DNA from: Eubacteriales bacterium
GTDB taxonomy: Bacteria; Bacillota; Clostridia; Lachnospirales; JAITVM01
DNA length: 64,000 nucleotides
Assembly (NCBI GenBank): GCA_031551135.1
Contig: JAVBOA010000010.1
Coordinates: 774-64,773 of the forward strand
Reading direction: 5' to 3'
The position numbers and the translations under genes were made by a program. Below, piece by piece: positions 2,975 through 61,431 of this stretch. Position 1 is the first letter of the stretch, and the number at the start of each line of letters is the position of its first letter. The notes beneath the pieces are model-generated. The model worked only from the letters and a program-made list of their open reading frames with translations, was not told the DNA's origin and did no database searches.

Positions 2975-3643
2975 CTAATGATACCATTCGGAAGGCACCG
3001 AATTAGAAATATTTTCTCCAAGATTTTCTCTCACAATCTCACGCTTTGCCTGTATCGCCACAACTTTATATTGGATTTCAAATATACTGTCCAATTCAAA
3101 ATTCCGCAATTCGGATTTTGAGCCGTGTTCTTCGTGATTCCCGCCAAACTCGCTGATTAACTCGAGATATATTTCGCTCAAAGGAATAATAGAATTCGGC
3201 TTGAGCATGGCATAATATGAATCGTTTATTTTTACCCATTTATTATTATTGTCCAAGCTCATATTAATCCGCATTACTTCATCAAGCCTTTTATCGCCAA
3301 AATACCAGATACCGTTTTCAAAATAATAATCATTTGTAAATTGTTTCGGCGGGTCTTTCGGCAAAATACCTTTTGCAGAATCCTCGAAAGAAATCTGCAA
3401 AATACAACTTTTCGAGCCTTTATTAGAAATCTTGGCAAGGCCGGTGTCGTTTAATAGAATTTTTTCTCCGGGCATTTTATTGCTGGCTGTAATGAGTTCA
3501 GATACCGCAGTATCTGTTATAGATGTCGACACATCTATCGGTTTTACATTCATCCGAAAATACAATGAATAAGCAACAGATACGGCTATTAATATCATTA
3601 ACAAAGCAGCAATAAGTGCATACAAACGCTTATTACCTTTCAT
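2975..3643 (-). CDS. Hypothetical membrane-anchored protein
   Basis: ORF with N-terminal hydrophobic anchor (LYALIAALLMILIAVSVAYSLYF). Start set at MKGNK (ATG 3643), preceded by a GGGGGGAG RBS. No recognisable motif. Confidence 0.5.
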   Translation of the reverse strand: MKGNKRLYALIAALLMILIAVSVAYSLYFRMNVKPIDVSTSITDTAVSELITASNKMPGEKILLNDTGLAKISNKGSKSCILQISFEDSAKGILPKDPPKQFTNDYYFENGIWYFGDKRLDEVMRINMSLDNNNKWVKINDSYYAMLKPNSIIPLSEIYLELISEFGGNHEEHGSKSELRNFELDSIFEIQYKVVAIQAKREIVRENLGENISNSVPSEWYH

Positions 3644-3831
3644 TAATGCTCCCCCCAAAAATATAGTTATTTTTTATAAATCAAAACAAATTTCGTTTAT
3701 ATGAATCGATAGATAGAGCAGAGAGTTCTGCAATTTAATGTTAATATAAATAAATAACATAATGATTACTTTATCGATTCTATAAAAAATAACGGTATTA
3801 TTTTTGAGAATGGGGTTCCGTTTGTAATATA

Positions 3832-4623: not shown

Positions 4624-4938
4624 TTATTGTTCGGATTTTTCTATATACTCAAAATCTATCGGCGAAAGCGGCTTTTCTTTCGGCAATAAAAAAAGAGTTT
4701 GTCTGTTTTCGACCGATACTGTTGGCACTACGCTCGGCGAAGCCGGATTTTCTTTTTGAATACTTTCAGTTGCCGCTACTGCTTTTTCTTCGCTGAAAAA
4801 CATTTCGGTAGCGTAATTATATGTGAATATCGAGCCGATTGTAAATAGGCAAATAACAATAGCATAGCTCATTCCGTTGCCTTTTTTCTGCTTCATGGCT
4901 TTGGTTCGCTTCTTTTTCCATTTGGATTCTTTTTTCAT
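4624..4938 (-). CDS. Hypothetical small membrane protein with a basic N-terminus
   Basis: Start at MKKESKWKKK (ATG 4938, RBS AAAGGGGTG). One TM segment (YAIVICLFTIGSIFTY). No recognisable family. Confidence 0.45.
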   Translation of the reverse strand: MKKESKWKKKRTKAMKQKKGNGMSYAIVICLFTIGSIFTYNYATEMFFSEEKAVAATESIQKENPASPSVVPTVSVENRQTLFLLPKEKPLSPIDFEYIEKSEQ

Positions 4939-18850: not shown

Positions 18851-18917
18851 ACAATCACTCCTCAAAATATTGATGAAGCTATTATTTGCAGAAATCGAAA
18901 AATTATGCATAAAAAAA

Positions 18918-18990
18918 TGGGAGCTATAGGGCTCGAACCTATGACCCTCTGCTTGTAAGGCAGATGCTCTCCCAGCTGAGCTAAGCTCCC
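18918..18990 (-). tRNA. tRNA-Val (anticodon TAC)
   Basis: The reverse complement folds as a 73-nt cloverleaf: GGGAGCT-TA-GCTC-AGCTGGGA-GAGC-A-TCTGC-CTTACAA-GCAGA-GGGTC-ATAGG-TTCGAGC-CCTAT-AGCTCCC-A. Confidence 0.92.
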
Positions 18991-19006
18991 AAAAAATCTT
19001 TTTACA

Positions 19007-20340: not shown

Positions 20341-20363
20341 ATAATTACCTCCTAAAATATAAA

Positions 20364-20408
20364 TAAAAAAAGCAAACAACGAGAATCTAAGTACGTGAAC
20401 GTTTGCTT
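20364..20408 (-). terminator. Leader terminator upstream of the alcohol dehydrogenase
   Basis: Minus strand AAGCAAACG...CGTTGTTTGCTT hairpin followed by TTTTTTT, located between leader copy B and the RBS. Confidence 0.65.
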
Positions 20409-20427
20409 AAACCGAACCCAAAAAAAG

Positions 20428-20518
20428 CCATCTCCTTCTCGCAATGGAAAGCATTTCTGTTTCCGGAAATACTCATCGGCTGCTATCCATGACACTCGTT
20501 TTAGGATTAACATCTCGG
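20428..20518 (-). promoter_or_regulatory. Conserved leader RNA element, copy B (riboswitch/attenuator candidate)
   Basis: Minus strand reads CCGAG-N33-GCCGAUGAGUAUUUCCGGAAACAGAAAUGCUUUCCAUUGCGAGAAGGAGAUGG. Matches copy A with compensatory changes in two stems. Confidence 0.6.
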
Positions 20519-20535
20519 TTTTAGCAATTATAACA

Positions 20536-20564
20536 ATTATAATCGAGTAAATTTACAAAGTCAA
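20536..20564 (-). promoter_or_regulatory. SigA-type promoter for the adh leader
   Basis: Minus strand TTGACT (20564..20559), 17-nt spacer, TATAAT (20541..20536). Confidence 0.65.
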
Positions 20565-20812
20565 GGCAGTTTCACTATAGTTATTTAATTAACAATCTTG
20601 TCAATTGATAAAATAGCCTAAATTCATGTTAAATATATTTGGAGTAAACAAATATCTGCGGCTTATTTTATATTTATATTTTTTTAACAATCTTTAAACC
20701 TAATATAAAATATTTTTTGTAATAACTAAAGAGAGCAAAAAAATGCTATATGAAAAATAGCTAAAAATCATACAAATACTTTGTTAAATATATAAAATAT
20801 GATATTTGTATA

Positions 20813-20841
20813 TTGACATATTTTAAACTATTAAATATAAT
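20813..20841 (+). promoter_or_regulatory. SigA-type promoter for the mop operon leader
   Basis: TTGACA (20813..20818), 17-nt spacer, TATAAT (20836..20841). Confidence 0.7.
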
Positions 20842-20857
20842 AAAAATGTACAAATTT

Positions 20858-20949
20858 CCGAGCCGAAGTATCTAAAGTGTATACTATGATATAAGGCCGA
20901 TGAGTATAGTTGGAAACAGCTATGCTTTCCATGGTTGAGAAGGAGATGG
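20858..20949 (+). promoter_or_regulatory. Conserved leader RNA element, copy A (riboswitch/attenuator candidate)
   Basis: CCGAG-N33-GCCGAUGAGUAUAGUUGGAAACAGCUAUGCUUUCCAUGGUUGAGAAGGAGAUGG. Contains a 10-bp stem capped by a GAAA tetraloop at 20903..20926. Confidence 0.6.
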
Positions 20950-20970
20950 TTATATTTTATTTATGTATTA

Positions 20971-21020
20971 AATCAATCTGAAAGCCTTTTTTGACTTTCC
21001 GGTTGATTTTTTTTATTTTT
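20971..21020 (+). terminator. Leader terminator upstream of mop
   Basis: AATCAATCTGAAAG...CTTTCCGGTTGATT (13 of 14 bp) followed by TTTTTTTTATTTTTT. The RBS AAGGAGG and ATG 21049 follow. Confidence 0.7.
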
Positions 21021-21048
21021 TAATCATTTTGAAAAGGAGGAAGAATGA

Positions 21049-23892
21049 ATGGCTTTAAAGAAAATGACTTTAGTTATTAACGGCACAGAGCGTATGTTTA
21101 TGTGCGAGCCCGAAAAAGATTCCCTTGCTCAAGTAATTAGGCGGTTGGGGTTGACTGGAACAAAGATTGGATGCGGAACAGGCCAATGCGGTGCATGTTC
21201 CGTAATTTTGAACGGCGAGGTTTGTCGTTCATGCTCGAAAAAAATGAAAACAGTTGCTGAATATAGCGTAATCACTACCATCGAAGGACTTGGCACAGCG
21301 GAAAACCTTCATCCGCTTCAAAAAGCGTGGATAATTTACGGCGGTGTTCAATGCGGTTTTTGCAGCCCGGGCTTTATTGTTTCCGCAAAATGCCTTTTAG
21401 ACCACAATCCGAATCCTACACGTCAAGAAGTCAGAGACTGGTTCCAAAAGAACCGCAACGCTTGCCGTTGTACAGGATATAAACCTTTAGTTGATGCCGT
21501 TATGGCGGCCGCCGAAGTAATGCGCGGTGACAAGCCTATGTCTTCGCTTGAATACAAAATGCCGGAAGACGGCAAAATATACAGTTCTCATTTTCCGCGT
21601 CCTGCCGCTCTCGGAAAAGTTCTCGGCGCTACAGATTATGGCGACGATATTTCGCAAAAAACTCCGGGCATGCTGGAATCGGCTGTCGTTCTTGCAAGAG
21701 TTCATCACGCTAACATAATTTCGATTGATATTTCGGAAGCTGAAAAAGCTCCGGGCGTAGTTAAAGTTGTTACTTCAAAAGACGTTAAAGGAATGAACCG
21801 CGTGCCTATTCCAATAGCTTCACCGCGTGCAAAAGGTTCCGGATTTGAACGTCCGATTTATAATGATAAAAAAGTTTTCCGTTATGGCGATATTTTAGCT
21901 TTGGTTATTGCTGACACCCGCGAAAACGCAAGGGCTGCCGCAAAACTTGTAAAACTGGAGCTTGAAGAACTTCCTGCAAATTTAACAGCAGTAGAGGCTT
22001 TGGCCGAAGACGCTGTCAGAGTACATGACGAATATCCTCCTGTAGTATGCGACATGCCTTGCTTCCACGGCGACGACCCAAGAGAAGAACTCAAAAAGAG
22101 CAAATTCGTTGTTGAAGGAAGTTTCCATTCCAGCAGAGAGCCGCATTTACCGATTGAACCGGACGTTGTTCAAGCATATATCGACGAAAACGGAATTTTG
22201 ACTATACACAATAAAACATTGGCTCTGCATTTGAGCTGGGCAGTTATTGGGCCGGGCGTAGGATTCCCTAAAGAAAAAATCCGTATTATAGAAAATCCAA
22301 CCGGAGCAAGTTTCGGATACTCCATGGATCCGCATACTTCCGCTGTGGTTGCGGTTGGTACAATCGCAGTTGACGGCCGCCCTGTCAACCTTACGCTGAC
22401 ATATGAAGAGCATATGCATGTAACAGGCAAGCGTCTTCCTTCTTATACAAACGCAATTATGGGCTGTGATGAAAACGGCAAGCTCAACACAATGGCTTAT
22501 GAAATTATAATGGAAAAAGGTGCGTATTCTCAATTGGCTTATGTTTATGCCGAAGCCGGCCTTCGTTTCTTTGGTGCGCCTTATACCGTGCCGAACACAT
22601 GGGGAATTTGCGAAGTTGTAATGACAAACCACAATTTCGGAATCGCATACCGCGGCGCCGGTTCTCCGCAAGGTCAGCACGCATCAGAAATTTTGGTAGA
22701 CATGCTTGCTGAAAAAGCCGGAATCGATCCGCTCGAATTCAGATATATGAACGTTTATAAAGAAGGCGATACTTCGCATATCGGTCATAAGTTCAATGTA
22801 TATCCTATGCAGGCTATTTTGGACAAGCTTCGCCCGAAATATCAAGCTGCAAAAGAAAGAGCTGCAAAAGAATCCACTCCGGAGAAAAAACGCGGCGTTG
22901 GTGTTTGCTGCGGTACTTTCAACGTTGGACCTAATCCGAACGATAACTGTACTATAACTCTTGAGCTTAATGAAAAAGACGGCATTACGCTTTATTCGAA
23001 CTGGCAAGACCAAGGACAAGGCGCGGATATCGGTTCTCTTACAAACTGCCACGAGGCATTCAAAGAACTCGGAATCAGACCTGACCAAATCAAACTTGTT
23101 ATGAACGATACATTCCTTCCTTCTGTTCATGGTCCTTCCGGCGGAAGCCGCTCGCACTATATGGACGGTATGGCAATGGTTAATGCCGCTAACAAACTTA
23201 TGGACGCAATGAGAAAAGATGACGGCACTTTCAGAACATATCAAGAAATGAAAGCCGAAGGAATTGAAACAAAATACGCCGGCGCAGGCTCGACAGGAGC
23301 ATTTACTTCTCCGCTCGACCCGAATACCGGACAAGGAAACCCTTCCGGCGAATATATGTTTGCGGCTTACCTCGCTGATGTTGAGGTTGAAGTTGCAACC
23401 GGCAAAACAAAAGTAATCAGCATGCACTGTGTATGCGACGTCGGCGTAATCGGAAATTATCTTGCTGTAGACGGTCAAGCATACGGCGGTATGTCGCATT
23501 GTATCGGCTTTGCGCTTTCGGAAAATTATCATGATGTAGATAAACATAAGCATCTTATCGGCGCAGGACTTCCGTTTATAAATGATGTTCCGGACGGTGA
23601 CGATTTCACGGTTGAATATAATATTTCTCCGAGAAATACAAATCCTTTCGGCTCCGGCGGATGCTCCGAAGTTTTCCAAAGCTCGGATCACGTTGCTATA
23701 CTTAACGGTATTTACAATGCTGTTGGCGTACGTATTACCGATATTCCGGCACTTCCTGAAAAAGTTAAAGCCGGAATCGACGCTCTTGCCGCAGGCAAAG
23801 AAGTTGAAAACCTGAAATATAATCTGGGTAAAGATTTGTTTGAAAAACTCGATTTTGCGAAAGCAAATCCGGTTGAGATTAAAAAAGCCTAG
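21049..23892 (+). CDS. mop: Mop-type molybdenum aldehyde oxidoreductase (xanthine oxidase family; two [2Fe-2S] domains fused to the Mo-pterin domain, no FAD domain)
   Basis: GCGTGQCGACSV and QCGFCSPGF cluster motifs. ENLHPLQKAW...RDWFQKNRNACRCTGYKPLVDAVM closely parallels Desulfovibrio gigas MOP as I recall it. The 947-aa single-chain layout also matches. Confidence 0.88.
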   Translation: MALKKMTLVINGTERMFMCEPEKDSLAQVIRRLGLTGTKIGCGTGQCGACSVILNGEVCRSCSKKMKTVAEYSVITTIEGLGTAENLHPLQKAWIIYGGVQCGFCSPGFIVSAKCLLDHNPNPTRQEVRDWFQKNRNACRCTGYKPLVDAVMAAAEVMRGDKPMSSLEYKMPEDGKIYSSHFPRPAALGKVLGATDYGDDISQKTPGMLESAVVLARVHHANIISIDISEAEKAPGVVKVVTSKDVKGMNRVPIPIASPRAKGSGFERPIYNDKKVFRYGDILALVIADTRENARAAAKLVKLELEELPANLTAVEALAEDAVRVHDEYPPVVCDMPCFHGDDPREELKKSKFVVEGSFHSSREPHLPIEPDVVQAYIDENGILTIHNKTLALHLSWAVIGPGVGFPKEKIRIIENPTGASFGYSMDPHTSAVVAVGTIAVDGRPVNLTLTYEEHMHVTGKRLPSYTNAIMGCDENGKLNTMAYEIIMEKGAYSQLAYVYAEAGLRFFGAPYTVPNTWGICEVVMTNHNFGIAYRGAGSPQGQHASEILVDMLAEKAGIDPLEFRYMNVYKEGDTSHIGHKFNVYPMQAILDKLRPKYQAAKERAAKESTPEKKRGVGVCCGTFNVGPNPNDNCTITLELNEKDGITLYSNWQDQGQGADIGSLTNCHEAFKELGIRPDQIKLVMNDTFLPSVHGPSGGSRSHYMDGMAMVNAANKLMDAMRKDDGTFRTYQEMKAEGIETKYAGAGSTGAFTSPLDPNTGQGNPSGEYMFAAYLADVEVEVATGKTKVISMHCVCDVGVIGNYLAVDGQAYGGMSHCIGFALSENYHDVDKHKHLIGAGLPFINDVPDGDDFTVEYNISPRNTNPFGSGGCSEVFQSSDHVAILNGIYNAVGVRITDIPALPEKVKAGIDALAAGKEVENLKYNLGKDLFEKLDFAKANPVEIKKA

Positions 23893-23986
23893 AAAAATTC
23901 CAGAAATATAACTATAATAATAGGGCTGCGTTTTTTGCAGCCCTTAACTATATAACTATATAACAAATCCCAAAAGTGGTGTGTTT

Positions 23987-26233
23987 ATGAATCCTAATTA
24001 TTTTGAAGAAAAAATTAATAAATGTTTAAGAGATGAAAAAGCATTCTGTTCGAATGCTTGTCCTTTTGATATCGATATCAGAGATTTTCTCGGAAAAATC
24101 CAGAAAGGCTTGTTCACTCAGGCGTACAATGCTTATGCTAAAACAGTTTTGTTCCCGAATATTGTTTCGCGTCTTTGTCCGGAAATGTGTAAAAATAATT
24201 GTATCCGTTGCGGAATCGACGAGCCGGTTTTAGTTGGAGAATTAGAAAAATCTCTTTCATATATGCATAAAAATCAGGTCACGCCTGCATATTATATTCC
24301 CGAAAAAAACAAAAGCGTGCAGATTATAGGCGGCGGTTTATGTGCCCTAGCCTGCGGAATAAAATTGGCGCAGAGCGGATATAGAGTTGACCTTTATGAA
24401 AAAAATCCCAAAACCGGCGGAACTGTTTGGAATACAGAAGAAAATATTCTGCCGCAAGATTTGATTGAAGAAGAAATTCAAAACAAAGCAAACCAAAGAT
24501 TTTTGAATATTTTTACCGATGCCGATTCAGAAGAAATCAATTTAGATTACGACGCTGTTTTCGTGGCGACGGGTTTTGGCGGAAATACTTTCGGCGCGGA
24601 AAAAAGAGATAACGAGTTTTTTTTAGACGATAAAGTATTTTTCGGTGGCTCGCTTGTGAATGGCGAACAATCCAAAGTTCTCTCTGTTCAGCAAGGTATT
24701 TATTGCGCTAAAAAAATAGATGCTTTTTTACGCAAAGTTAAATTAATTACTCCGAAACCTCAAACGGCGTTTTTCAAACCCGATACCGAAAAAATTCTTT
24801 CAAAAAATCCGGTGAAGCCGATTGATGAAAATTCATGGACTGAAGCGGAAATAAAAGAAGAAGCTTCGAGATGTATTCAATGCAGATGTAATAATTGCAT
24901 GGAAGTATGCGATATGCACAATTATTACGGTCGAGAGCCAAAAAAAACTCTTGGCTCAGTTGCCGAAACTATTTTTAAATCTCAGTGGTCAAGAAAGACC
25001 GCACATATTTTAGCTAACAGCTGCACAAACTGCGGTGCGTGCAAAGACGCATGTCCTGTCGGAATTGATTTTTCACAAATCTACAAAGATTCCAGACGGG
25101 TTATGCATTTGCAGGGCGTTACGCCGCCTGCTTATCACGAATACTGGATTAATGACTTGATTCACAGCAACAGCGATGCCGCGCTTGTAAAGCCTGCGAA
25201 AAAAACTACGAATTATCTTTTGTTCCCGGGCTGTCAGCTTGGCGCGACTGACCCTGCTTACGTAGTCGAAAGCTACAGGCTTCTTTCGGAGCTTTTGGAC
25301 AACGAAGTCGGAATTATGTATCAATGCTGCGGTGCGCCGGCCTATTGGGACGGAAATCTGGAAATGTTTTCGTCAACATGCGATAATATCAGAAATTCGT
25401 GGGAAGAACTCGGCAAGCCTGTTATGGTTACAATATGCCCCAGCTGTTACGCGCTTTTCAAAGAGCAATTGCCGGATATTCCGAATATTTCAATTTGGGA
25501 ATTATTAGCGGAAAAATTTGAGCCGTTGGATATCGGAAACTCCCAAAAAATAACGGTTTTCGACCCTTGCTCAAGCTCTGAGTTTCCCGAAATGCAAAAA
25601 TCTGTACGGAAATTGATTGAAAAAATCGGTTTTATCATAGAAGAGGCGGAGGCTGAATCGTCCGCCTGCTGTGGCTACGGCGGTTTAATTTACGGCGCAA
25701 ATCCTGACCTTTATGATAAGATAAACGAAAAAAATATCACGGCTTCGAAAAATGATTTCATTGCTTATTGTACAAACTGCCGAGAGGCCTTTGTGAAATA
25801 CAAAAAGCCGACTTATTATCTTTTGGAGTTGCTTCTTTTTAAAGATACAAACAGAAAATCCCACAGCCGTCTTTCTTTGACCCAGCGCAGAAAAAACAAA
25901 GAAAACACTAAAAAAGCATTATTGAAGGAGTTTTGGCAATTGGACGAAAAAGAAAATCCGAAAAAAATAAAACTTGTTATTTCTGATGAGCTTGTGGAGA
26001 AAATGGACGCACTTTTAATACATGAAGAGAATTTATCCGCGTGTATTCTTTATGCCGAAGAAAACGGCAGCAAAATATTCAACAACGAAAGAAAGTCCTA
26101 CACTGCACATTTATTGCAGGGAATTATTACTTTTTGGGTTGAATATCAAAAAAATTCCGACGGAAGTTTTTCTGTACTGAACGCGTATAAACATCGGATG
26201 AGTATAATTGAAAAAGGTGATATAGATGGCTGA
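23987..26233 (+). CDS. Multidomain redox protein: GltD-like Fe-S N-terminus, FAD/NAD(P) Rossmann, 2x[4Fe-4S] ferredoxin domain, two CCG (HdrD/GlpC-like) Cys-rich domains and a C-terminal extension
   Basis: IIGGGLCALACGIKLAQSGYRVDLYEKNPKTGG, CIQCRCNNCMEVC, CTNCGACKDACPVG, PGCQL...QCCGAP, DPCSS...ACCGYGG. The start is ATG 23987 or GTG 23981. Confidence 0.7.
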   Translation: MNPNYFEEKINKCLRDEKAFCSNACPFDIDIRDFLGKIQKGLFTQAYNAYAKTVLFPNIVSRLCPEMCKNNCIRCGIDEPVLVGELEKSLSYMHKNQVTPAYYIPEKNKSVQIIGGGLCALACGIKLAQSGYRVDLYEKNPKTGGTVWNTEENILPQDLIEEEIQNKANQRFLNIFTDADSEEINLDYDAVFVATGFGGNTFGAEKRDNEFFLDDKVFFGGSLVNGEQSKVLSVQQGIYCAKKIDAFLRKVKLITPKPQTAFFKPDTEKILSKNPVKPIDENSWTEAEIKEEASRCIQCRCNNCMEVCDMHNYYGREPKKTLGSVAETIFKSQWSRKTAHILANSCTNCGACKDACPVGIDFSQIYKDSRRVMHLQGVTPPAYHEYWINDLIHSNSDAALVKPAKKTTNYLLFPGCQLGATDPAYVVESYRLLSELLDNEVGIMYQCCGAPAYWDGNLEMFSSTCDNIRNSWEELGKPVMVTICPSCYALFKEQLPDIPNISIWELLAEKFEPLDIGNSQKITVFDPCSSSEFPEMQKSVRKLIEKIGFIIEEAEAESSACCGYGGLIYGANPDLYDKINEKNITASKNDFIAYCTNCREAFVKYKKPTYYLLELLLFKDTNRKSHSRLSLTQRRKNKENTKKALLKEFWQLDEKENPKKIKLVISDELVEKMDALLIHEENLSACILYAEENGSKIFNNERKSYTAHLLQGIITFWVEYQKNSDGSFSVLNAYKHRMSIIEKGDIDG

Positions 26234-26441
26234 GGACTTGACGAAAAATATTAATATGGATTCCCTTATTTGCGGTAAATGCAATATTCCGCTAGAAAAG
26301 AAAACAACTTATTTTAAATATATGGGATTTGATTTTAATGCCGATTTGCCTTGCTGTCCGTCTTGCAAGCAAGTGTACATTCCCGAAGAACTTGTTACAG
26401 GAAAAATGCAGAAAGTAGAAATGGAGCTTGAGGAAAAGTGA
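26226..26441 (+). CDS. 71-aa zinc-ribbon-like protein (CxxC ... CCPxC)
   Basis: CGKCNIPL...LPCCPSCKQVYIPEE. The start overlaps the upstream stop (ATGGCTGA) and the stop overlaps the GTG start of the radical SAM gene. Confidence 0.6.
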   Translation: MAEDLTKNINMDSLICGKCNIPLEKKTTYFKYMGFDFNADLPCCPSCKQVYIPEELVTGKMQKVEMELEEK

Positions 26442-27679
26442 GACATACATACAGCCTTTGCCCGATATGCTTCAAAAAAATTTCGGCTATACAAATCAAA
26501 AGAGGAAACGATTTTTATCTTGAAAAAGAATGTCCAAATCATGGAAAGTTTTCAACCATAGTTTGGCGCGGTGAGCCTAATCTCGAAAATTGGAGAGGCG
26601 ATTACCCGCCGCTCGAAAAAATGCCGCCGTGTCCGCAAGCCTGCGGCCTTTGCGCGGAGCATCAGCAACAGACTTGCTGTGTAATAATCGAAATTACGAA
26701 TCACTGCAATTTGGATTGTAATATTTGTTATAACGGCGGAAATAAAAATGATATTAACCCCGATACTGAGACCGTAAAAAATTGGATCAGTGAGTTAGCC
26801 GCTAAAGGCAAGAGTTTTTTGCAAATAAGCGGCGGCGAGCCGACAACAAGAGACGACATTCCCGAAATTATCGCGCATGCCAAAGAATGCGGCTTTGAAT
26901 ATATCCAACTCAATTCAAACGGTTTAAGAATCGCTTACGAGGACGGATATGCCAAAAATTTAGCAGATGCCGGGCTGAGTTTTGTCTTTTTGCAGTTTGA
27001 CGGCACTAACGACGATATTTACAGAAAACTGCGGAACAGAGAGCTTTTAAAAGAAAAGCTTGAAGTCATCAGAATTTGCGGCGAGCTGAATATCGGCGTT
27101 GCGCTCGTGGCTACGCTTGTACCCGGAATAAATATTGACGATATCGGAAATATTATACGGCTTGGAGCGTCGCTGTCGCCGGCGGTCAGAGGAGTGCATT
27201 TTCAACCGGTAGGATATATGGGAAAATTTAACCCGACGATTCCCGAAAACGATGACCGTTTCACATTGCCCGAATTAATCAGAGAGATTACAAAACAAAC
27301 CGAACTTCCGATTGAAAGCATTCTTGCTTCACGCTGTGACCACGCAATGTGCGGATTCCACGGCGATTTTATTTCCGAAAACGGCAAGCTAAGACCACTC
27401 GCCGTCAGAAAACCGACTACTTGCTGTTGTGATGTATCTGCCGAAGCAAATAGGAATTTTATCGGCAGAAGATGGAAAAGAAGTGAAAGCACCGATACCG
27501 AAGGCGGAGATAGTTTTGAAATTTTTCTGGAAAACTTGCGTCAGCACGGCTTTACAATCACCGCAATGGCTTTTCAAGATGCATATAGTATTGACTTTGA
27601 GAGAATTTGCAGATGTTCATTGCATGTCTATAAAGATAAAAATTTGATTCCGTTCTGCTTAAAGCATATTTTATATTGA
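26438..27679 (+). CDS. Radical SAM enzyme with an N-terminal zinc-ribbon (CPxC...CPNHG) and a Cys-rich C-terminus
   Basis: CNLDCNIC (Cx3Cx2C), QISGGEPT, N-terminal CPICFKK...ECPNHGKF, C-terminal TTCCCD. There is no in-frame TGA. Confidence 0.8.
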   Translation: MRHTYSLCPICFKKISAIQIKRGNDFYLEKECPNHGKFSTIVWRGEPNLENWRGDYPPLEKMPPCPQACGLCAEHQQQTCCVIIEITNHCNLDCNICYNGGNKNDINPDTETVKNWISELAAKGKSFLQISGGEPTTRDDIPEIIAHAKECGFEYIQLNSNGLRIAYEDGYAKNLADAGLSFVFLQFDGTNDDIYRKLRNRELLKEKLEVIRICGELNIGVALVATLVPGINIDDIGNIIRLGASLSPAVRGVHFQPVGYMGKFNPTIPENDDRFTLPELIREITKQTELPIESILASRCDHAMCGFHGDFISENGKLRPLAVRKPTTCCCDVSAEANRNFIGRRWKRSESTDTEGGDSFEIFLENLRQHGFTITAMAFQDAYSIDFERICRCSLHVYKDKNLIPFCLKHILY

Positions 27680-27722
27680 TACGATTTGATTCCAAAGGAT
27701 AGAAATAATATGACGAATAAAA

Positions 27723-27778
27723 AATTTCACACTCATTCTGCCCAAACTACCGAGCGGAACGAATGTGAAATTTTTTTC
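27723..27778. terminator. Probable bidirectional terminator between convergent operons
   Basis: ATTTCACA...TGTGAAAT stem flanked by an A-run (left) and TTTTTTT (right). Confidence 0.45.
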
Positions 27779-27788
27779 TTGAAATTCC

Positions 27789-29042
27789 TTAATGCTTTGA
27801 TATCAGCCTTTTTCCTAGTTTAGATGGTGAAAGTCCGTCCGACTTGTGAATAATTTTCACATCTGCCCCATAAATTCCGCAAATTTCGGATAAAGCCGCT
27901 TCGTAGGCTTTCGGGCGGATTTCGCAATTATCTTTGCTCCAAATTCCTATATTAATCAATTTCTCTGTTAAATTTAAATTTACCGAAAAGTCTACAATTT
28001 CTTCAAATCTAAACAGAATGTTGTCAAAATCAATCATTGAGACTTCGCCTTCTTTTCGGTAAGGCGGCGCGATTCTTGTAAGAAAAGAGCCGCATTGGCA
28101 TTTTTCTTTCATAAAATGCGTATAATCGCCGGTTCTGTATCGAATTAGCGGCACTCCCTCACGTTGCAGAGTAGTAAAAACTAATTCGCCGGTCGTTCCG
28201 TCCGGTAGCGGTATTCCGCTCAATGGGTCGATTACTTCGAAAAATAATTCTGCCTCTCGAAGATGCATGCCTTCGTGTGCGGAGCATTCAAGAGCCGCAC
28301 CGTAGCCCATTTCCGTAGTTCCGTAATGATTGAAAACGGTACAATCCAAATTATTTTCGATTCTTTTTCGGACAGTTTCGGCAAGACAATCCGCGGAAAG
28401 CAGTACGCTTTTGAGTTTATAATTTTTGTCTTTTAAATATTCCGAAAGTTCGAGAATCTGCACGGGCAATCCGGCGATACAATTCGGCTTGTATTCGATA
28501 AGATTGTTAAGTGCATCGGAAATATCTTTGATAGAGCCGTAAATTTCCGCTTGCATGCCTTTTTTTTCGCATGCAGATTTTAAAAGCTGAGAAACGCCGT
28601 ATTCGGAGCTTCCCGGCATAAAAATCAAAACTCTGTCACCATTTTTCGCAAGCTCGAGCATTCCCTGCGCAAAAAAATCCGTAGTCATTTCCAATTCGGA
28701 AGCCGTAAAGCCGATTCTTTTTGGCTCTCCTGTTGAGCCTGAGCTGAAGAGCGTTACCATTCGCAAAATCTCCTGCGGTGAAACCGAAAAAAAACTCTCC
28801 GCCTGATTTGTGATTAAATCTTCTGCCGAAGTCGTCTTTAGTTTTCCAAATTCTTCAAAAGATCCAATTTCTTTCGAAAACCGGTTTTTATAAAATTTAG
28901 AACTTTCGCCCGCCAGCGCAAGTGTTTTATTTATCGCTTTTAGCTGTAGCTTTCGCAAAGAAGCTAAACTGTTTTCCGAGACGGTTTTATTCAGCATATC
29001 GTTTACAAAAAAATCCAATACAGTTGGGTTCATATTGCTCAT
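27789..29042 (-). CDS. AMP-dependent (PaaK/phenylacetate-CoA-ligase-like) acyl-CoA ligase
   Basis: SSGSTGEPKR adenylation P-loop and YGTTE. About 417 aa, typical of the short PaaK-like branch. Confidence 0.75.
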   Translation of the reverse strand: MSNMNPTVLDFFVNDMLNKTVSENSLASLRKLQLKAINKTLALAGESSKFYKNRFSKEIGSFEEFGKLKTTSAEDLITNQAESFFSVSPQEILRMVTLFSSGSTGEPKRIGFTASELEMTTDFFAQGMLELAKNGDRVLIFMPGSSEYGVSQLLKSACEKKGMQAEIYGSIKDISDALNNLIEYKPNCIAGLPVQILELSEYLKDKNYKLKSVLLSADCLAETVRKRIENNLDCTVFNHYGTTEMGYGAALECSAHEGMHLREAELFFEVIDPLSGIPLPDGTTGELVFTTLQREGVPLIRYRTGDYTHFMKEKCQCGSFLTRIAPPYRKEGEVSMIDFDNILFRFEEIVDFSVNLNLTEKLINIGIWSKDNCEIRPKAYEAALSEICGIYGADVKIIHKSDGLSPSKLGKRLISKH

Positions 29043-29078
29043 CCTTTGGGAGTATTGTTCTATTTTTTGGAAAAATAT

Positions 29079-31283
29079 TTACAAATTATTTTTATTATAG
29101 TTAATCAAACATCCGGCAAGCAAAATTTCACGTTCTTTATCGTTCAATTCTCCGAGAGACAATTCGATTTCTTTATTTTTATTAAGAACGATACCTTTTA
29201 TAATCTCATCTTTGTTTATAATTGCTTTTTTCAAATCGGGGATATAAATATAATCATCTAATTCAAACTCGATTTCCGATTTCAGCACAAAAGGCATAAT
29301 TCCCCAATTTATTAAATTTGAGCGGTAGCGTTTTGTAGCGTATTCGCTGACGATATTCGCATAAGTTCCCAAAACTTTTTGGCAGGAAGCCGCCTGTTCA
29401 CGCGCCGAGCCGTCGCCCGGTTTTATTGCATAAACTGCCGAACCGATTGAGGTTTTCGAAAAATCTATCGGAAAACCGGATTTTATATTCGTTATATTTT
29501 CACCTTTAATGCGGCTTTTTTCGATTTCTTGAACAGCCTTGGCTTTCGGAACATAATCCGGATCTTTTCTCGATAATGTAAATTCCGCTAATTTCAGCGG
29601 ATTGGAACGATAACTCGAAGTTTCGCCAGAAGGAATTAATTCGTCTGTAGTCGTAACTTTATCCGTAATAAATGAAACAATTTTTATCAGCATATTATCT
29701 GCAAGCTCAATCATTTCCGGCCAATCTGCGATATTCGGTCCGTAAATCAATTCCGATTCGCTTTTTGGATTATTATATCCGTTATAACAGCGTTTTTCAT
29801 AGATACTCAAATCGAATGCGTATTTTGGAATATTATTATCAATTTCTCCTGCCGCTGTCAAAAATCCGCCGTTTGCGGCAGTTGCGGCAATTGATTTTGC
29901 GTCCATCAATGCGACTCCGGTCATTTGACCGTCGGAAGGTTTTGAGCCGTCACGGTTTGGAAAATTACGTGTAGTATGGCGGATGCTCAAGCTTCCGTTT
30001 TTAGGTATATCGCCTGCGCCGAAGCACGGACCGCAAAACGCAGGTTTTATTACCGCGCCCGAGGAAATTAATTTTGCAATCGTTCCGTTTTTGACAAGCT
30101 CTAAATATGACGGCTGAGATTCCGGATAAAGCGTTAAAGAAAATTCGTCGTTTCCGAGGGCGGTATTTTCCAAAATATTCGCCGCATGACATACGGAAGC
30201 GTAATTTCCTCCGGCGCAACCGGCGATAATTCCCTGATCGACTTTCAATTTTCCGTTTATAATTTTCTTGCTTAAATCCAATTTCAATTTAGGATCTTTT
30301 ACGTAATTAAGGCTGTCTTCAGCGACTTTCGATAAAATTTCTTCAAGATTATTGTTAAGATAATCGATTTCATAAACATTGCTTGGATGGAAAGGCAGAG
30401 CAATCATTGGTCTTATTTCGGATAAATCGATTTCAATAAGACCGTCATAATAAGCAGTATCTTTTATAGAAAGAGGCTTGTAATCTCCGCCGCGCAAATG
30501 CGTTTTCAAGTACTCCTCCGTGATTTCGTCGGTTTCCCAAATACTCGATAGGCAAGTGGTTTCGGTAGTCATAACGTCGATTCCGTTTCGGAAATAAATA
30601 TCCAGATTTTTTATTCCGTCTCCCACAAATTCCAGAACTTTATTTTTCACAAAGCCCGACGCGAATACTTTACCGATAAGCGCAAGCGCAACGTCATGCG
30701 GACCGATATTGCTCTTTGGTTTTCCGCTCAATTTTACACAGATAATTTCCGGGTAATTTATATCGTAAGTTTGGTTAAGAAGCTGTTTTGCAAGCTCGCC
30801 GCCGCCTTCTCCAATAGCCATTGTTCCGAGCGCGCCGTATCTTGTATGCGAATCCGAGCCGAGAATCATTTTTCCGCAGCCGGCAAACATTTCACGCATA
30901 TATGAATGAATAACTGCCATATTTGGGGGAACGAAAATTCCGCCGTATTTTTTTGCCGCCGAAAGTCCGAAAACGTGGTCATCCTCGTTAATCGTTCCGC
31001 CGACCGAACAAAGCGTGTTATGGCAATTTGTCAGAACATAAGGTATCGGAAATTTTTGCAGACCGGAAGCTTTTGCGGTTTGAATAATTCCGACGTAAGT
31101 TATGTCATGCGAAGCCATAGCGTCAAAAACGATTTTCAATTTATCCATATTTCCGGATTTATTGTGATTTTCCAGAATTCTATAAGATATTGTATTTTTT
31201 TTCGCTTCATCTACAGGCATTTGAGTATTTTCTAAAATTTCATATTTATTGCTGACAAAAATTCCTTTATCAATAATTTTCAT
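29079..31283 (-). CDS. Aconitase-superfamily hydratase (fused catalytic and swivel domains)
   Basis: [12 protein letters not shown] and CGPCFGAGD cluster-ligand motifs. C-terminal swivel-like region ([22 protein letters not shown]). 36 nt upstream of the CoA ligase gene. Confidence 0.75.
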
Positions 31284-47927: not shown

Positions 47928-49193
47928 ATGAGCGGCTATAACGCAGTACTAGCAAGAAATACCGAAAACGCTCCAATAAACGCTTCATATTCGCAAACGG
48001 TAGCTTTTTCACATTACAATAATTTTTCGGCTCAATTACCTATCGATCCAAAATCCGGCAAATTAGTGGCCGGCGGCGTAAAAGAACAAGCCGAGCAATG
48101 CTTTAAAAACATCAAAGCAGTAGTAGAAAGCATAAACCATGTTATGAGTGACGTTGTCAGAATCACTGTATTCGTTAAGAATATCAAAGATGTCGACGCT
48201 GTAAACGAAGTTTATAAAACATTCTTCCCGACATATGTTCCTACAAGAACTACAGTTGCAGTAGATGCATTGCCTATGGATGCTTTAGTGCAAATCGAAG
48301 CGCTTATTTCGAACGGCGAAGGCACAATTCCAAACGCACCGCAAGCAGGCGACTTGATTAAGCTTACAAACAACACGGCAAATGCGCCAATATGTGCGCT
48401 TTCTACACAAACCGTGTCTTTTTCTCATTACAATAATCTTTCGGCTCAATTGCCTATCGACCCAAAAACCGGCAGATTAGTAATCGGCGGCGTAAAAGAG
48501 CAAACTGCACAGTGCTTAAAAAATATTAAGGCGATTTTAGAAAGTATCGACGTTCCTTTTGACGATATTGTTAAAATTAATATATTCCTTAAAGACCTTT
48601 CGGATATTGAAGCCGTAAACGAAGTTTATACAACATTTTTCCCTGACTCGGCTATCGCAAGAGCCGTTGCTTATCTTCCTGCAAGAACTGTAATTTCAGC
48701 GTCCGCTTTGCTTATGGATGCTTTAGTTCAAATCGAAGCAGTGGTTTCACACGGAGACGGTACGCCTCCGCAAGCTATTGAAGATAGACACGGACTTATT
48801 ATCGAAGCAAACAATACAGAAAATGCACCAAAATCTTCTCTGTCTACACAGACCGTGGCTTTTTCTCATTACAATCATCTTTCGGCGCAATTGCCTTTAG
48901 ACGCAAAAGGCAGCATGGTAGCCGGCGGTGTAAAAGAACAAGCCGGACAATGCTTGAAAAATATTAAAGCAATTGTAGAAAGTATCGACCATTCTATGGA
49001 AGATATAGTTAAAGTAAATGTATTCCTTAAAAATATCGCGGATATCGACGCTATGGATGAAGTTTACAAAACATTCTTTCCAAGCGGCACTCCTGCACGC
49101 AGAGTAGTCGGCGTATCGGCTTTGCTTAACGATGCTCTGATTCAAATAGATGCCGTTGTATCAAACGCAGAAGGAACTCCGCCAATAGCATAA
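47928..49193 (+). CDS. Triple tandem RidA/YjgF/L-PSP domain protein
   Basis: Three ~135-150-aa repeats, each with NT(E/A)NAP...S(T)QTV(A/S)FSHYN..SAQLP(I/L)D...GGVKEQ..QC(F/L)KNIKA..ESI...(V/I)FLK(N/D)...(V/M)(N/D)EVYK(T)FFP...AR...L(P/L).DAL(V/I)QI(E/D)A. Confidence 0.85.
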   Translation: MSGYNAVLARNTENAPINASYSQTVAFSHYNNFSAQLPIDPKSGKLVAGGVKEQAEQCFKNIKAVVESINHVMSDVVRITVFVKNIKDVDAVNEVYKTFFPTYVPTRTTVAVDALPMDALVQIEALISNGEGTIPNAPQAGDLIKLTNNTANAPICALSTQTVSFSHYNNLSAQLPIDPKTGRLVIGGVKEQTAQCLKNIKAILESIDVPFDDIVKINIFLKDLSDIEAVNEVYTTFFPDSAIARAVAYLPARTVISASALLMDALVQIEAVVSHGDGTPPQAIEDRHGLIIEANNTENAPKSSLSTQTVAFSHYNHLSAQLPLDAKGSMVAGGVKEQAGQCLKNIKAIVESIDHSMEDIVKVNVFLKNIADIDAMDEVYKTFFPSGTPARRVVGVSALLNDALIQIDAVVSNAEGTPPIA

Positions 49194-58203: not shown

Positions 58204-58845
58204 TTATTTTTCTTCAAATTTTCTATTGCGCTCTTTCGGCGAGATTACCACATATCTATACGGCTCTACGCCTTGGCTGAAAGTGCTTACAAAACGGTCA
58301 TTTTGAAGCGCAGAATGAATAATACGCCTTTCATAAGGATTCATAGGCTCAAGAGAAACCTCTTTGCGAGTCTGCTTAACTTTTTTAGCAAGATTATGCG
58401 CTAAATTATCCAGCGTTTCCTTGCGGCGTTCGCGGTAATTTTCGGCATCAATCGTAACGCTGACATAAGGCGCATTTCCTTTATTAACCGCGAGATTAAC
58501 AAGATATTGCAAAGAATCCAAAGTTTGTCCGCGTTTTCCAATCAAAACTCCCATATCGTCACCTTTTAATACTATATCGATATGCCTGTCCTTTTCCGTA
58601 ATATCAAATTCTACAACGATTCCCATGCAAATAAATATTTCACGTAAAAAGTTCTTAATTGTGGATACAGGGTCAAATTTTTTAGTTACTTTTATTTTAA
58701 AAGGTTTGCTTCCAAAGCCCAAAATTCCTTTCGAGCCTTGCTCTAATATAACGTAATCAACATTGTCTTCTGTAGTTTTCAATTCGCTTATAGCTAGGCT
58801 CAAAGCTTCCTCTAATGTCTTCCCTGTTTTTTCGATCGAATCCAT
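58204..58845 (-). CDS. khpB: RNA-binding protein Jag/KhpB (Jag_N, KH, R3H)
   Basis: N-terminal GKTLEEALSLAISEL, KH-like VLIGKRGQTLDSLQYL, R3H PMNPYERRIIHSALQ. Conserved position after yidC. Confidence 0.88.
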   Translation of the reverse strand: MDSIEKTGKTLEEALSLAISELKTTEDNVDYVILEQGSKGILGFGSKPFKIKVTKKFDPVSTIKNFLREIFICMGIVVEFDITEKDRHIDIVLKGDDMGVLIGKRGQTLDSLQYLVNLAVNKGNAPYVSVTIDAENYRERRKETLDNLAHNLAKKVKQTRKEVSLEPMNPYERRIIHSALQNDRFVSTFSQGVEPYRYVVISPKERNRKFEEK

Positions 58846-59861
58846 TATTTATCAATCCCCTTTTTTTTAGCATAGACTTTATTAAGAACTAACTGCTGAC
58901 AAATTTGAAATACATTAGAAGTAATCCAGTACAAACCAACACCGATCGGAGTAGAAATCGTAAAAAATGCCATCATTAAAGGCGTAACATAAGTCATAGT
59001 TTTTTGTGTACTGGCTACAGTTGGATCTGAAGGAGTATTTTTTTGCTGTTTCATCATAATATATGAAGTTAAAAAGCTTGTTACGGCTGCCAAAATAGGA
59101 ATTATAATAGCAGGCGACAATCTAAATCCGGGCGTATCGGTCAATTTCAATCCTAGAAAAAGATCAGATGCCGCAACTTCCAATAAAAACCCTTTAATCT
59201 GTTCAATCTGTGCAGAAAACTCCGCCGGAACTTTTGCGAAAAAAGCTGCCCATTCGGATTCGGAGAATTTAGCTAAAACTCTTGCCAATTGATCAGGCGC
59301 ATCTGCGCCGATATTCAGCGGTTTCATAAGTTTCGGTTCTATTATCGGTTTCAGCATCTCCAAGCTTCCGCTTATCGATAAAACCGTAGCCGCTAATTTA
59401 TCAACATACAATTCTTTAAGCTGAGAAATATAAAGAAAAGGCTGCTGCATTATATAAGAGAGTGCGAAAAATATAGGTAATTGTAAAAACAAAGGTAAAC
59501 ATGAAGCAATCGGGTTAATTTTTTCTTTCGAGTACAAAGCTTGCAGCTCCGCATTCTTTTTTTGCAAAACCGCAGAGTCTTTTGAATCACCGTATTTTTT
59601 ATTTATTTTGTCAATCTCTGGCTGTATTTTTTGGGTTTTCATCATTGATTTTTGAGAGCTGATAGCAAACGGCACCATTATAAATCTTGTAAAAATCGTA
59701 AACAAGATTATGGATATACCCAAAACATGCGCAGAAGTAAAATTCGATATAAAATTATAAATTACATTAAGAATAACACCTAAAATATTTGCAATAAATC
59801 CGATTATCGCAGAAGGCTCGTTCGGGACTTTAGTTGTGTTCAAAAACAAAAACAGGTTCAA
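58845..59861 (-). CDS. yidC: Membrane protein insertase YidC/Oxa1 family
   Basis: [17 protein letters not shown]-type motif, [24 protein letters not shown]. Conserved synteny. Confidence 0.88.
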
Positions 59862-60097
59862 ATATTTTCCTCCTCAGATTTATTTTCCAAAGGCACAGGG
59901 TCAAAACCGCCTTTAGAAAAAGGGTTACAACGCAATAATCTTTTTGCTCCCAAAAAAATACCCTTAACAACACCGTATCTCTCTATCGCTTCGTAGGCAT
60001 ATTGCGAACATGTGGGATAAAATTTACATGAGTTTGGAAGCCCCGGCGATATTGCCCGCTTATAAAAAATCAACAGATACAGACAAATTTTTTTCAT
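59858..60097 (-). CDS. yidD: Membrane protein insertion efficiency factor YidD
   Basis: [31 protein letters not shown]...[14 protein letters not shown]. Confidence 0.9.
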
Positions 60098-60133
60098 AAA
60101 AACAAAGCCCCTTATGAATAAAAACAGAATAGA

Positions 60134-60502
60134 TCATACACCTTTATTATATAGATTATGTTTTTTTAAAAGATGTATCAAAGAATCATTAATTTCAAAA
60201 TAGCCCAGCCCTTTTGTTGTGTTTCTGGCAACAACAACAATATTATATCCGCGCGCGATTTTTTTTTCCAAAAGCCTGTAGCTTTCGCGAATACAGCGCG
60301 TGACTCTGCTTCTGACAACAGAGTTCCCGACTTTTTTGCTAACGGAAATGCCTAAATAATTTAATGAAGAATTATTTTTCAAAATATACAATACCAAGTT
60401 TCTATTTGCGATAGACTTTCCTTTACCATATACAATACGAAAATCCTTATTTTTTTTTAGGGATGTGGTAAATTCCAAAAGAACGTCCTCCCGCTTTTTC
60501 AT
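60134..60502 (-). CDS. rnpA: Ribonuclease P protein component
   Basis: LKKNKDFRIVYGKGKS...GISVSKKVGNSVVRSRVTR(C)IRE RNR-like motif. Synteny with rpmH. Confidence 0.88.
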   Translation of the reverse strand: MKKREDVLLEFTTSLKKNKDFRIVYGKGKSIANRNLVLYILKNNSSLNYLGISVSKKVGNSVVRSRVTRCIRESYRLLEKKIARGYNIVVVARNTTKGLGYFEINDSLIHLLKKHNLYNKGV

Positions 60503-60611
60503 ACAAATTCGATTTTTTTCTTAAAACAAATACGCTTAATCAAATAACCTAAAATACGTATAAATAAAAGACCACAAAAAAGTGGCCTCATACTTAAGAC
60601 TTTATAAATAA

Positions 60612-60740
60612 TTAAGCAGACAATACTTTTCTACCTTTTTGACGTCTTCTAAGTAGAACTTTTCTACCGTTTTTAGTACTCATTCTTTTTCTAAAACCAT
60701 GCTCTTTGCTTCTTTGCCTTTTTTTAGGCTGAAACGTCAT
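60612..60740 (-). CDS. rpmH: 50S ribosomal protein L34
   Basis: Not in the ORF track (42 aa). My translation is [42 protein letters not shown]. Confidence 0.93.
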
Positions 60741-60951
60741 TTTCAATTTCAGCACCTCCTTATAAAAAAGATGAATCGTATAAAAAATTTTTGCAAAGCA
60801 ATAATAATTTCATAAAAACAGGATTTTTTAAAAAATCTGTCTATAACTTTGCACACACTGCCAATAAACAGCCATACGAACTATTGCTATTATATAAAAT
60901 AAAATTTTCCTAGTCAAGTACAGTTTTATTATAAAAATTTAATTGTATTGC

Positions 60952-61301
60952 TTATCCACAAATATTTTGATATTATTATATTAATTCTGTGTAAAACATG
61001 TTTAATTTTCTAAGTTATTCACATTCTGTTGATAAGTCTGTGTATAACTATTAAATTCTTTCCAAATTATTGTTTTCTTATATAGCTGTTGATTTTTTGC
61101 TGCAAATATATTTTGTTTTCGTGTCATATATAATCAAGAAAAATCAAAATTAATGAATAATTGTATTCTTAAAATGCTATATATTGTAATTTGTTGATAA
61201 CTGTAATTTAATGTTGTTAATTATATTTTCTCTTGCAAATAACACCCAATTTTTACAGGGTTTTATTTTTTCTGTATTTTATAGTTTTACACATATCCAC
61301 A
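60952..61301. promoter_or_regulatory. oriC part 1: DnaA-box cluster between rpmH and dnaA
   Basis: Perfect TTATCCACA at 60952..60960. One-mismatch boxes at 61015..61023 (TTATTCACA), 61027..61035 and 61192..61200 (TGTTGATAA), 61039..61047 (TGTGTATAA) and 61293..61301 (ATATCCACA). Confidence 0.8.
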
Positions 61302-61329
61302 ATTTAATTATTAACATTATCAACAATTA

Positions 61330-61407
61330 ATATTTTTTCCATTTGAATGGAAATATTATAAAATATGATTATTTCTATTTTTCTATCCTTAAAAATGGAA
61401 ATAGTAT
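61330..61407. repeat. Two mini-form palindromic repeats immediately upstream of dnaA
   Basis: 61330..61359 ATATTTTTTCCA-tttgaa-TGGAAATATTAT (degenerate) and 61368..61407 ATTATTTCTA-TTTTTCTATCCTTAAAAA-TGGAAATAGTAT. Confidence 0.6.
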
Positions 61408-61431
61408 TAAAACTCCCAGGGGGAAATTCGC

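Follow-up and report, generated by a model that had tools for sequence, protein, structure and literature searches.

In a 64,000-nucleotide window of contig JAVBOA010000010.1 from a Eubacteriales bacterium (the window being the whole stretch analysed here), positions 20364-21020 hold two divergent transcription units, each composed of a promoter, a leader aptamer, a hairpin with a U-run, a GGAGG ribosome-binding site (RBS) and an ATG start codon (Table 1). The plus-strand unit opens the operon of a Mop-type aldehyde oxidoreductase, an enzyme with 2Fe-2S and xanthine-oxidase-family molybdenum-cofactor (Moco) domains (PF02738, PF20256, PF01315), and the minus-strand unit serves an iron-containing alcohol dehydrogenase (ADH) for which no NCBIfam equivalog reaches its cutoff. 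This layout is confirmed and lies far beyond chance. An earlier note, made from the letters of this DNA, had placed two near-consensus divergent promoters here; both stand at the coordinates it gave, with 12/12 consensus matches on the mop side and 11/12 on the ADH side, and they are the top two promoter-like (sigma-70-like) sites of the region. The 248-nt spacer between them (20565-20812) is AT-rich and contains several more promoter-like sites, and the 801-nt region scanned holds 11 such sites against 5.7 expected.

We scanned the whole window against Rfam 15 at gathering thresholds and obtained three matches, one tRNA and two to the Moco RNA motif (RF01055; gathering score 36 bits), one in each leader. 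A repeat scan of the 801-nt region returned the same two RF01055 matches with E = 5.5e-16 and 8.5e-07. The earlier note could match the leaders to no riboswitch class by eye and presented them as potentially new, to be given up if an Rfam search gave a confident hit; that search finds the known family RF01055 for both leaders, and the novelty falls on the note's own terms. Its idea of a riboswitch for the molybdenum or tungsten cofactor was right for the mop side and wrongly confined to it, as the ADH leader belongs to the family too (67.4 and 36.1 bits, respectively), while its broader view of a structured attenuator holds in the form of cis-regulatory leaders that combine a riboswitch with a terminator. 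Taking the explanation as a whole, control logic included, we consider it very probable that both leaders are molybdenum/tungsten-cofactor riboswitches of the subgroup that lacks stem P3. They are ordinary members of a known family, though their arrangement as twin divergent copies is slightly unusual.

The anatomy of the family can be read directly from both leaders. Each is a full-length match except for P3, whose 15 consensus columns are deleted in both copies, leaving only a C and one inserted G between the 3' end of P2 and the AU that precedes P4. Both carry the junction strings CCGAG, GGCC/AGCC, AUGAGU...GCUUUCC and GAGAAGGAG, and depart from the consensus in having GAG where GGG is expected at the P4 base, and GCUUUCC in place of GCCUCCC. 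GGAAAC caps P4 in both, and the receptor-like bulge of P2 (UCUAAA...CUAUGA in the mop copy, CCUAAA...UCAUGG in the ADH copy) aligns to the receptor columns CUAa...AuG. Every modelled pair of the mop copy is standard. The earlier note had described an element of about 92 nt with two helices, one closing a 15-nt loop that starts with UAAA and the other capped by GAAA. Both helices are real: the second is P4 with its GAAA loop, and the first is the inner, tetraloop-receptor part of P2. The supposed loop is not a loop, being instead a GAAA-tetraloop-receptor-like bulge in P2 (CUAAA...UAUG) plus a small distal hairpin, and the element is longer than had been thought, at about 113-118 nt (20844-20961 and 20531-20419).

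These features set the leaders beside the prototype upstream of Escherichia coli moaA, with which they share the multistem junction (CCGAG, GCC, AAGGAG) and stems P1, P2, P4 and P5; they also have in common with RF01055 the GAAA tetraloop on P4, a receptor in P2 and a place in the 5' untranslated region (UTR) of a pterin-cofactor enzyme gene. The mop-side riboswitch lies in just such a 5' UTR, as expected of the family. Unlike the E. coli element, in which P3 is present and the RBS is masked within P1 (a translational OFF switch), the window copies are P3-less with separate terminators, and one of their two target enzymes neither uses nor makes the cofactor.

Table 1. Features of the twin-leader region and of the genes it serves (window coordinates).
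Feature	Position	Strand	Details
mop operon promoter	20813..20841	+	TTGACA-17-TATAAT; predicted transcription start near 20848
mop-side RF01055 aptamer without P3	20844..20961	+	67.4 bits, E = 4.4e-14, model positions 1-135
mop-side P1	20854-20859 / 20942-20947	+	RF01055 alignment
mop-side P2 with receptor-like CUAAA/UAUG	20862-20897	+	RF01055 alignment
mop-side P4 with GAAA loop	20902-20927	+	RF01055 alignment
mop-side P5	20928-20938	+	RF01055 alignment
mop leader intrinsic terminator	20970..21021	+	15-nt arms 20970-20984 / 20995-21009, then U8
Mop RBS GGAGG and ATG	21036..21051; ATG at 21049	+	sequence, open reading frame (ORF) list
Mop-type molybdopterin-dependent aldehyde oxidoreductase	21049-23892	+	NF045668, 1227.6 bits (cutoff 1100)
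"Dicluster near Sec" pyridine-nucleotide oxidoreductase	23981-26233	+	NF045663, 682 bits
71-aa ORF	26226-26441	+	candidate DUF7479, from its position in related operons
Radical SAM TrsS-like protein	26438-27679	+	488.9 bits (cutoff 490); no in-frame stop
ADH promoter	20536..20564	-	TTGACT-17-TATAAT; predicted transcription start near 20529
ADH-side RF01055 aptamer without P3	20419..20531	-	36.1 bits, E = 6.8e-05, model positions 1-135
ADH candidate antiterminator, 5' strand UUGCUAAAACCGA	20515..20527	-	P1 5' strand plus CCGA of the CCGAG junction
ADH candidate antiterminator, 3' strand UCGGUUUAAGCAA	20403..20415	-	overlaps first 6 nt of terminator 5' arm
ADH leader intrinsic terminator	20360..20408	-	stem 20408-20370, 3-nt bulge, 12-nt loop, then U7
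ADH RBS GGAGG	20352-20348; ATG at 20340	-	sequence
Iron-containing alcohol dehydrogenase, 398 aa	19144..20340	-	PF00465 and PF25137

The two leaders are inverted copies of each other, as the earlier note had recognized. One pair of arms (20444-20480 and 20896-20932, 37 nt) is 84% complementary and a second (20420-20440 and 20937-20957, 21 nt) 86%, the note's five invariant strings all fall at matching offsets in both copies, and a pairwise alignment of the whole leaders gives a mean column identity of 77%. Stems have diverged more than single strands between the copies (32/53 paired columns identical versus 30/41 unpaired), and all 8 of the pairs that changed on both sides are standard in the ADH copy, in agreement with the compensatory stem changes that had been reported. 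We extended the comparison to two further P3-less leaders found upstream of orthologous ADH genes, those of loci L002 and L007 described below. In the resulting set of four sequences 89.5% of cells are paired, versus 35-43% with partners slid, and 13 pairs have changed on both sides. Because the stems pair and covary in both tests, the two window copies look structurally constrained, the ADH copy more weakly. The pair may go back to a single promoter-plus-leader unit that was duplicated in inverted orientation, or two closely related units may each have been acquired.

An iron-containing ADH fits the gene associations of RF01055 only indirectly, since it is no cofactor enzyme itself and its tie to the family runs through a clade linked to Mop and to aldehyde:ferredoxin oxidoreductase (AFOR). 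We compared nine distinct contexts of this ADH, the window included (44-100% identity); its close relatives are few, one at 72% and the rest at 53% and below. A Mop or AFOR aldehyde oxidoreductase is linked to the ADH in 7/9 contexts, and a P3-less RF01055 aptamer fronts it in three: the window, where the ADH is divergent from the Mop operon; L002, an ADH-AFOR operon (ADH 52%; match at 3549-3661, 40.7 bits); and L007, an ADH-AFOR operon with MoeA genes nearby (ADH 46%; 4772-4881, 40.0 bits). RF01055 is absent upstream of the ADH in L001 (72%), beside a Mop/dicluster/DUF7479/TrsS/CoA-ligase cluster; L003 (52%), in the order ADH-Mop-dicluster; L004 (51%), where ADH is followed by AFOR-ThiS; L006 (48%) and L091 (44%), where the ADH stands alone; and L092/L093 (44-47%), in a Mop-dicluster-DUF7479-ADH-ADH operon. 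A suspected aptamer 3' end upstream of this last operon was rejected when Rfam found nothing there (bases 1-400 of the sequence extended to the contig end).

As a background control we used iron-containing ADH loci from a metagenome scan with the ADH-clade alignment, mostly generic enzymes of 28-44% identity. An RF01055-type riboswitch is absent from 80/80 of these generic loci among the matches listed, and Rfam returned only a cobalamin riboswitch on the 20 closest of those listed. A cobalamin riboswitch (RF00174, 49.2 bits; L013, 4814-5045) lies just downstream of a generic iron-containing ADH homologue in a metagenomic contig and is unrelated. A covariance model of the four P3-less matches found nothing beyond the sequences it was trained on and Logan contig L009, which comes from the same organism; the source assembly is represented in Logan by samples SRR23967709 and SRR23967707. 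Genome-collection scans with the ADH and Mop proteins gave no confirmed relative, in a collection that covers this lineage too thinly for single-sequence patterns.

The association of the riboswitch with the ADH is thus explained by a clade linked to pterin-dependent aldehyde oxidoreductases and by the recurrence of the same riboswitch in front of ADH-AFOR operons, and from its gene neighbourhoods the ADH is best seen as a dedicated metabolic partner of these oxidoreductases. One cofactor signal would then co-regulate both steps of the interconversion of alcohol, aldehyde and acid. In the ancestral state one leader may have served an ADH-oxidoreductase operon, with one copy for each of the now divergent genes here. 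We found no publication that joins a riboswitch, an aldehyde oxidoreductase, an alcohol dehydrogenase and the molybdenum cofactor.

The same evidence bears on whether the leaders might belong to a riboswitch class not yet described, or to an attenuator that depends on a protein, and answer to an aldehyde-related or other non-pterin effector, as the earlier note had allowed. Such an effector would suit an ADH that is not a pterin enzyme, and direct ligand evidence for P3-less RF01055 RNAs is absent from the two studies that describe them (PMC2408646, PMC11725836). We nevertheless regard it as highly improbable: both leaders are full-length RF01055 members with the junction nucleotides, the GAAA tetraloop and the receptor, a permissive Rfam scan of the 801-nt region shows no competing family close in score, and the gene associations in the window and its relatives are all with pterin-cofactor enzymes. 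An aldehyde-related signal in particular fits poorly with an ADH leader that keeps the aptamer core of the mop leader, with an ADH clade linked to pterin aldehyde oxidoreductases, and with a P3-less riboswitch that also fronts ADH-AFOR operons elsewhere.

The family itself has been described before. Regulski et al. (2008) collected 176 Moco RNAs (58 lack P3), whose expression platforms either hide the RBS in P1 or use a separate intrinsic terminator and whose downstream genes serve cofactor synthesis, molybdenum or tungsten transport, or enzymes that use the cofactor (PMC2408646). The P3-less RNAs were proposed to be sensors of the tungsten cofactor (Tuco), with exceptions that include nirB and sulphite oxidase, and P3-less variants followed by terminators were described, with examples from S. 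wolfei; the evidence of the study comes from genetic assays, not from direct ligand binding (PMC2408646). A 2024 study of Eubacterium limosum reported five P3-less copies (WOR1, tupABC, fetABC1/2 and focA), of which those of fetABC1 and focA are of the terminator type and go up under tungsten limitation, an OFF behaviour, and some of which control iron transporters and not cofactor enzymes (PMC11725836). In Pelobacter carbinolicus, Moco riboswitches precede the three aldehyde:ferredoxin oxidoreductase genes aorA1-3, which take part in alcohol metabolism (PMC3543383).

Against this background the kind of element, its P3-less form, its terminator platform and its link to aldehyde-oxidizing enzymes are all precedented. 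The window leaders resemble the Tuco variants of E. limosum and S. wolfei in lacking P3, in coming from anaerobes, in the hairpin and poly-U terminator that some of those carry, in alternative pairings that involve the 5' part of the aptamer, and in a regulon that extends to functionally coupled genes outside cofactor use (there, iron transporters). They differ from these variants in that the cofactor enzyme is a xanthine-oxidase-family Mop instead of an AFOR/WOR tungstoenzyme and in that the copies stand back to back on divergent promoters. With the P. carbinolicus genes they share a riboswitch placed over aldehyde-oxidizing pterin enzymes that work with alcohol dehydrogenases; there, by contrast, the riboswitch precedes the aor genes and not the ADH, and the enzymes are of the AFOR type. 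The traits that remain modestly unusual are the twin divergent copies, a regulon that takes in an iron-containing ADH, a molybdenum-type enzyme under a P3-less aptamer, and a wiring opposite to that of the relatives.

That wiring depends on the hairpins between the aptamers and the RBS. The mop hairpin (20970-21009) folds at -13.2 kcal/mol (z = -4.72; 0/200 shuffles as stable) and the ADH hairpin (20408-20370) at -9.2 kcal/mol (z = -2.02; 6/200), which upholds the earlier note's reading of a hairpin and U-run before each RBS and start codon. Both terminators begin about 20 nt past P1 and have no position in common with the aptamer. Partition functions at equilibrium predict no switching in the window leaders, with terminator probabilities of 0.89 and 0.89 (mop) and of 0.48 and 0.55 (ADH) with and without the aptamer enforced, respectively. 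A purely thermodynamic switch was therefore rejected, and any switching must be kinetic.

Folding of growing transcripts offers a candidate for such a kinetic step on the ADH side. There UUGCUAAAACCGA, which falls within the first 15 nt of the transcript, can pair with UCGGUUUAAGCAA over 13 nt (92% complementary, 12/13 positions, 12 bp) in a duplex of -17.0 kcal/mol that is equalled by 43/1000 shuffles. The mean pair probability of this putative antiterminator is 0.96 at transcript lengths of 128-146 nt, before the 3' arm of the terminator exists, and still 0.95 at 152 nt and 0.91 at 158 nt. On the mop side the probability of P1 is 0.9 at 104-110 nt and 0.00-0.06 once the 5' arm of the terminator emerges.

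These predictions suggest control by transcription attenuation, in which each aptamer is followed by a non-overlapping intrinsic terminator. With no ligand, part of the aptamer would pair with the 5' arm of the terminator and delay its formation; the delaying segment would be the P1 5' strand with the CCGA junction on the ADH side, and the region of the P4 base, P5 and P1 on the mop side. With the cofactor bound, the aptamer would retain these segments and the terminator could form. We infer, on the basis of the folding models and somewhat in preference to its opposite, that the window leaders are kinetic OFF switches in which cofactor binding leads to termination. This direction agrees with the terminator-type P3-less switches of E. 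limosum.

The two related leaders, those of L002 and L007, are built differently. They are like the window copies in being P3-less RF01055 members directly upstream of orthologous ADH genes, and unlike them in that the ADH shares its operon with a tungsten-type AFOR and is not divergent from a Mop gene, and in that the terminators (3642-3681 in L002, 4862-4894 in L007) overlap the P1 3' strand where those of the window are separate. In both, the 3' arm of the terminator mimics the 5' strand of P1. In L007 the P1 3' strand itself serves as the 5' arm of the terminator (GGAGUCU), with GGGCUCC as the mimicking 3' arm; for L002, the terminator pairing CAGAUAUUC:GAAUAUUUG is in competition with an outer P1 pairing, AUAUUUG:CAGAUAU. 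L002 and L007 thus look, from their sequences, like ON-type designs, in which a ligand-stabilized P1 would prevent termination. We found no description of ON-type Moco or Tuco switches in the published work on RF01055 that we consulted (PMC2408646, PMC11725836, PMC3543383). The tetraloop is GAGA in both leaders and the receptor is absent, which agrees with the correlation between loop and receptor that Regulski et al. (2008) noted for members with a GCAA loop (PMC2408646).

Could the window riboswitches be ON switches as well, such that cofactor binding gives read-through and the apo-enzyme and ADH are made only when cofactor is available? Such logic is physiologically intuitive for an enzyme that uses the cofactor, both related ADH-AFOR leaders are ON-wired, and the ADH helix 20527-20515 / 20415-20403 could also be an extended P1 by which the 5' arm of the terminator is sequestered. 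However, that long helix is incompatible with the consensus aptamer core, because it uses up CCGA of the conserved CCGAG and leaves GAGAAGGAG and about 20 nt as a one-sided loop, and we rank the extended-P1 reading lower because it consumes this conserved junction. Further, the simple L007-type wiring is excluded in the window because aptamer and terminator share no positions, the terminator starting about 20 nt after P1, and because the terminator probability is unaffected by the aptamer; on the mop side we found no anti-antiterminator element. We therefore hold ON switching to be a credible reading of these same riboswitches, though clearly the less probable one.

Several observations weigh against the account favoured here, of two functional OFF switches. 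At equilibrium the terminators form in both states, and the competing duplex on the mop side (GCUUUCCAUGGUUGAG x AUCAAUCUGAAAG, -8.7 kcal/mol) is matched by 474/1000 shuffles. Physiologically it makes no obvious sense to shut off an enzyme that needs the cofactor while supply is ample, and L002 and L007 have leaders wired in the opposite direction. Neither L001, with the closest ADH orthologue (72%), nor L094, with the closest Mop orthologue (74%), has an RF01055 match, so that comparison with relatives lends this particular placement no support. The ADH copy is the weaker of the two: its score of 36.1 bits is borderline against a gathering score of 36; its P1 is weak and interrupted, with CC:GG and GCUA:UGGC (2 + 4 bp) on either side of a 3x3 internal loop; P2 and P4 each have one broken pair; and its aptamer fold has a low nearest-neighbour probability at every transcript length, with P2 at most 0.21.

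The points on the ADH copy, together with its modest terminator (z = -2.02), make up the case that only the mop copy works and that the ADH copy, left over from an inverted duplication, is decaying, with the ADH simply expressed from its promoter through a leaky hairpin. We think this unlikely, as the copy nonetheless retains every junction string identically and has its own near-consensus promoter, terminator and 12-bp antiterminator; its double-changed pairs are standard in 8/8 cases and its stems more diverged than its single strands, which indicates selection on structure; and a P3-less RF01055 element recurs before orthologous ADHs in two other lineages. Because the leaders of L001 and L094 lack the element, the twin riboswitches were either gained in the window lineage or lost in those of the relatives. 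Recruitment appears from these comparisons to be lineage-specific and recent, the alternative being loss in the L001 and L094 lineages. Acetobacterium woodii (L095, Mop 60%) likewise has no RF01055 match. The leaders in L001 (3013-3252) and L094 (2155-2465) are AT-rich (sibling assemblies GCA_031549525 and GCA_031549885).

Which form of the cofactor the window aptamers would sense, molybdenum or tungsten, is less straightforward. Both copies lack P3, a trait of the proposed Tuco-sensing subgroup, and they stand apart from the tungsten-associated or pterin-synthesis genes of that subgroup, the window enzyme being a xanthine-oxidase-family Mop, a case that would join nirB and sulphite oxidase among the exceptions. 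To our knowledge, xanthine-oxidase-family enzymes occur only with molybdenum. L002 and L007 fit the tungsten proposal, because AFOR is a tungstoenzyme family. The ORFs that were scanned across the 64-kb window include no tupA/tupB, wtpA or AFOR gene and none for molybdenum or tungsten transport or cofactor synthesis. Either P3 status may be no strict marker of the metal, or a tungsten signal may repress a molybdenum-dependent isoenzyme pathway. B12 riboswitches repress B12-independent isoenzymes such as metE. By analogy, and provided that P3-less aptamers do sense the tungsten cofactor and that the window leaders are OFF switches, a riboswitch-based molybdenum/tungsten isoenzyme switch is conceivable, in which the tungsten cofactor would turn the window Mop and ADH off while ON-wired copies would turn ADH-AFOR operons on; we consider this a long shot.

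The wider neighbourhood of the mop operon comprises a DVU_1553-family CoA ligase and a PRK11413-type aconitase-family hydratase encoded convergently to it (cluster 21049-31283). L001, L093, L094 and A. woodii share the Mop/dicluster/DUF7479 core; L001 and L094 have TrsS and the CoA ligase as well. We found no publication that explains the function of the Mop/dicluster/DUF7479/TrsS cluster; literature matches to TrsS, DVU_1553 and DUF7479 were unrelated acronyms. A tRNA-Val(TAC) gene (18917-18991, minus strand) lies 153 nt downstream of the ADH gene on the same strand. Elsewhere in the window, jag, yidC and rnpA (minus strand) and dnaA (61432-62760, plus strand) lie within 58204-62760, and the window adjoins the chromosomal replication origin; 47928-49193 (plus strand) encodes a 421-aa protein with three tandem RidA/L-PSP (PF01042) domains, an uncommon architecture.

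The main value of this analysis is negative, in that a supposed new riboswitch class is RF01055, a family described in 2008. Beyond this, a pterin-cofactor riboswitch regulon here reaches an iron-containing ADH that does not use the cofactor, and so provides a clean example of a co-regulated partner enzyme. The xanthine-oxidase-family enzyme, with a P3-less aptamer before it, either adds another exception to the rule that the absence of P3 denotes tungsten or hints at cross-metal control of isoenzymes. Finally, one type of aptamer that appears with OFF-like wiring in the window and with ON-like wiring before orthologous ADHs would supply a compact set of natural variants for the study of signal transduction in this poorly characterized family.

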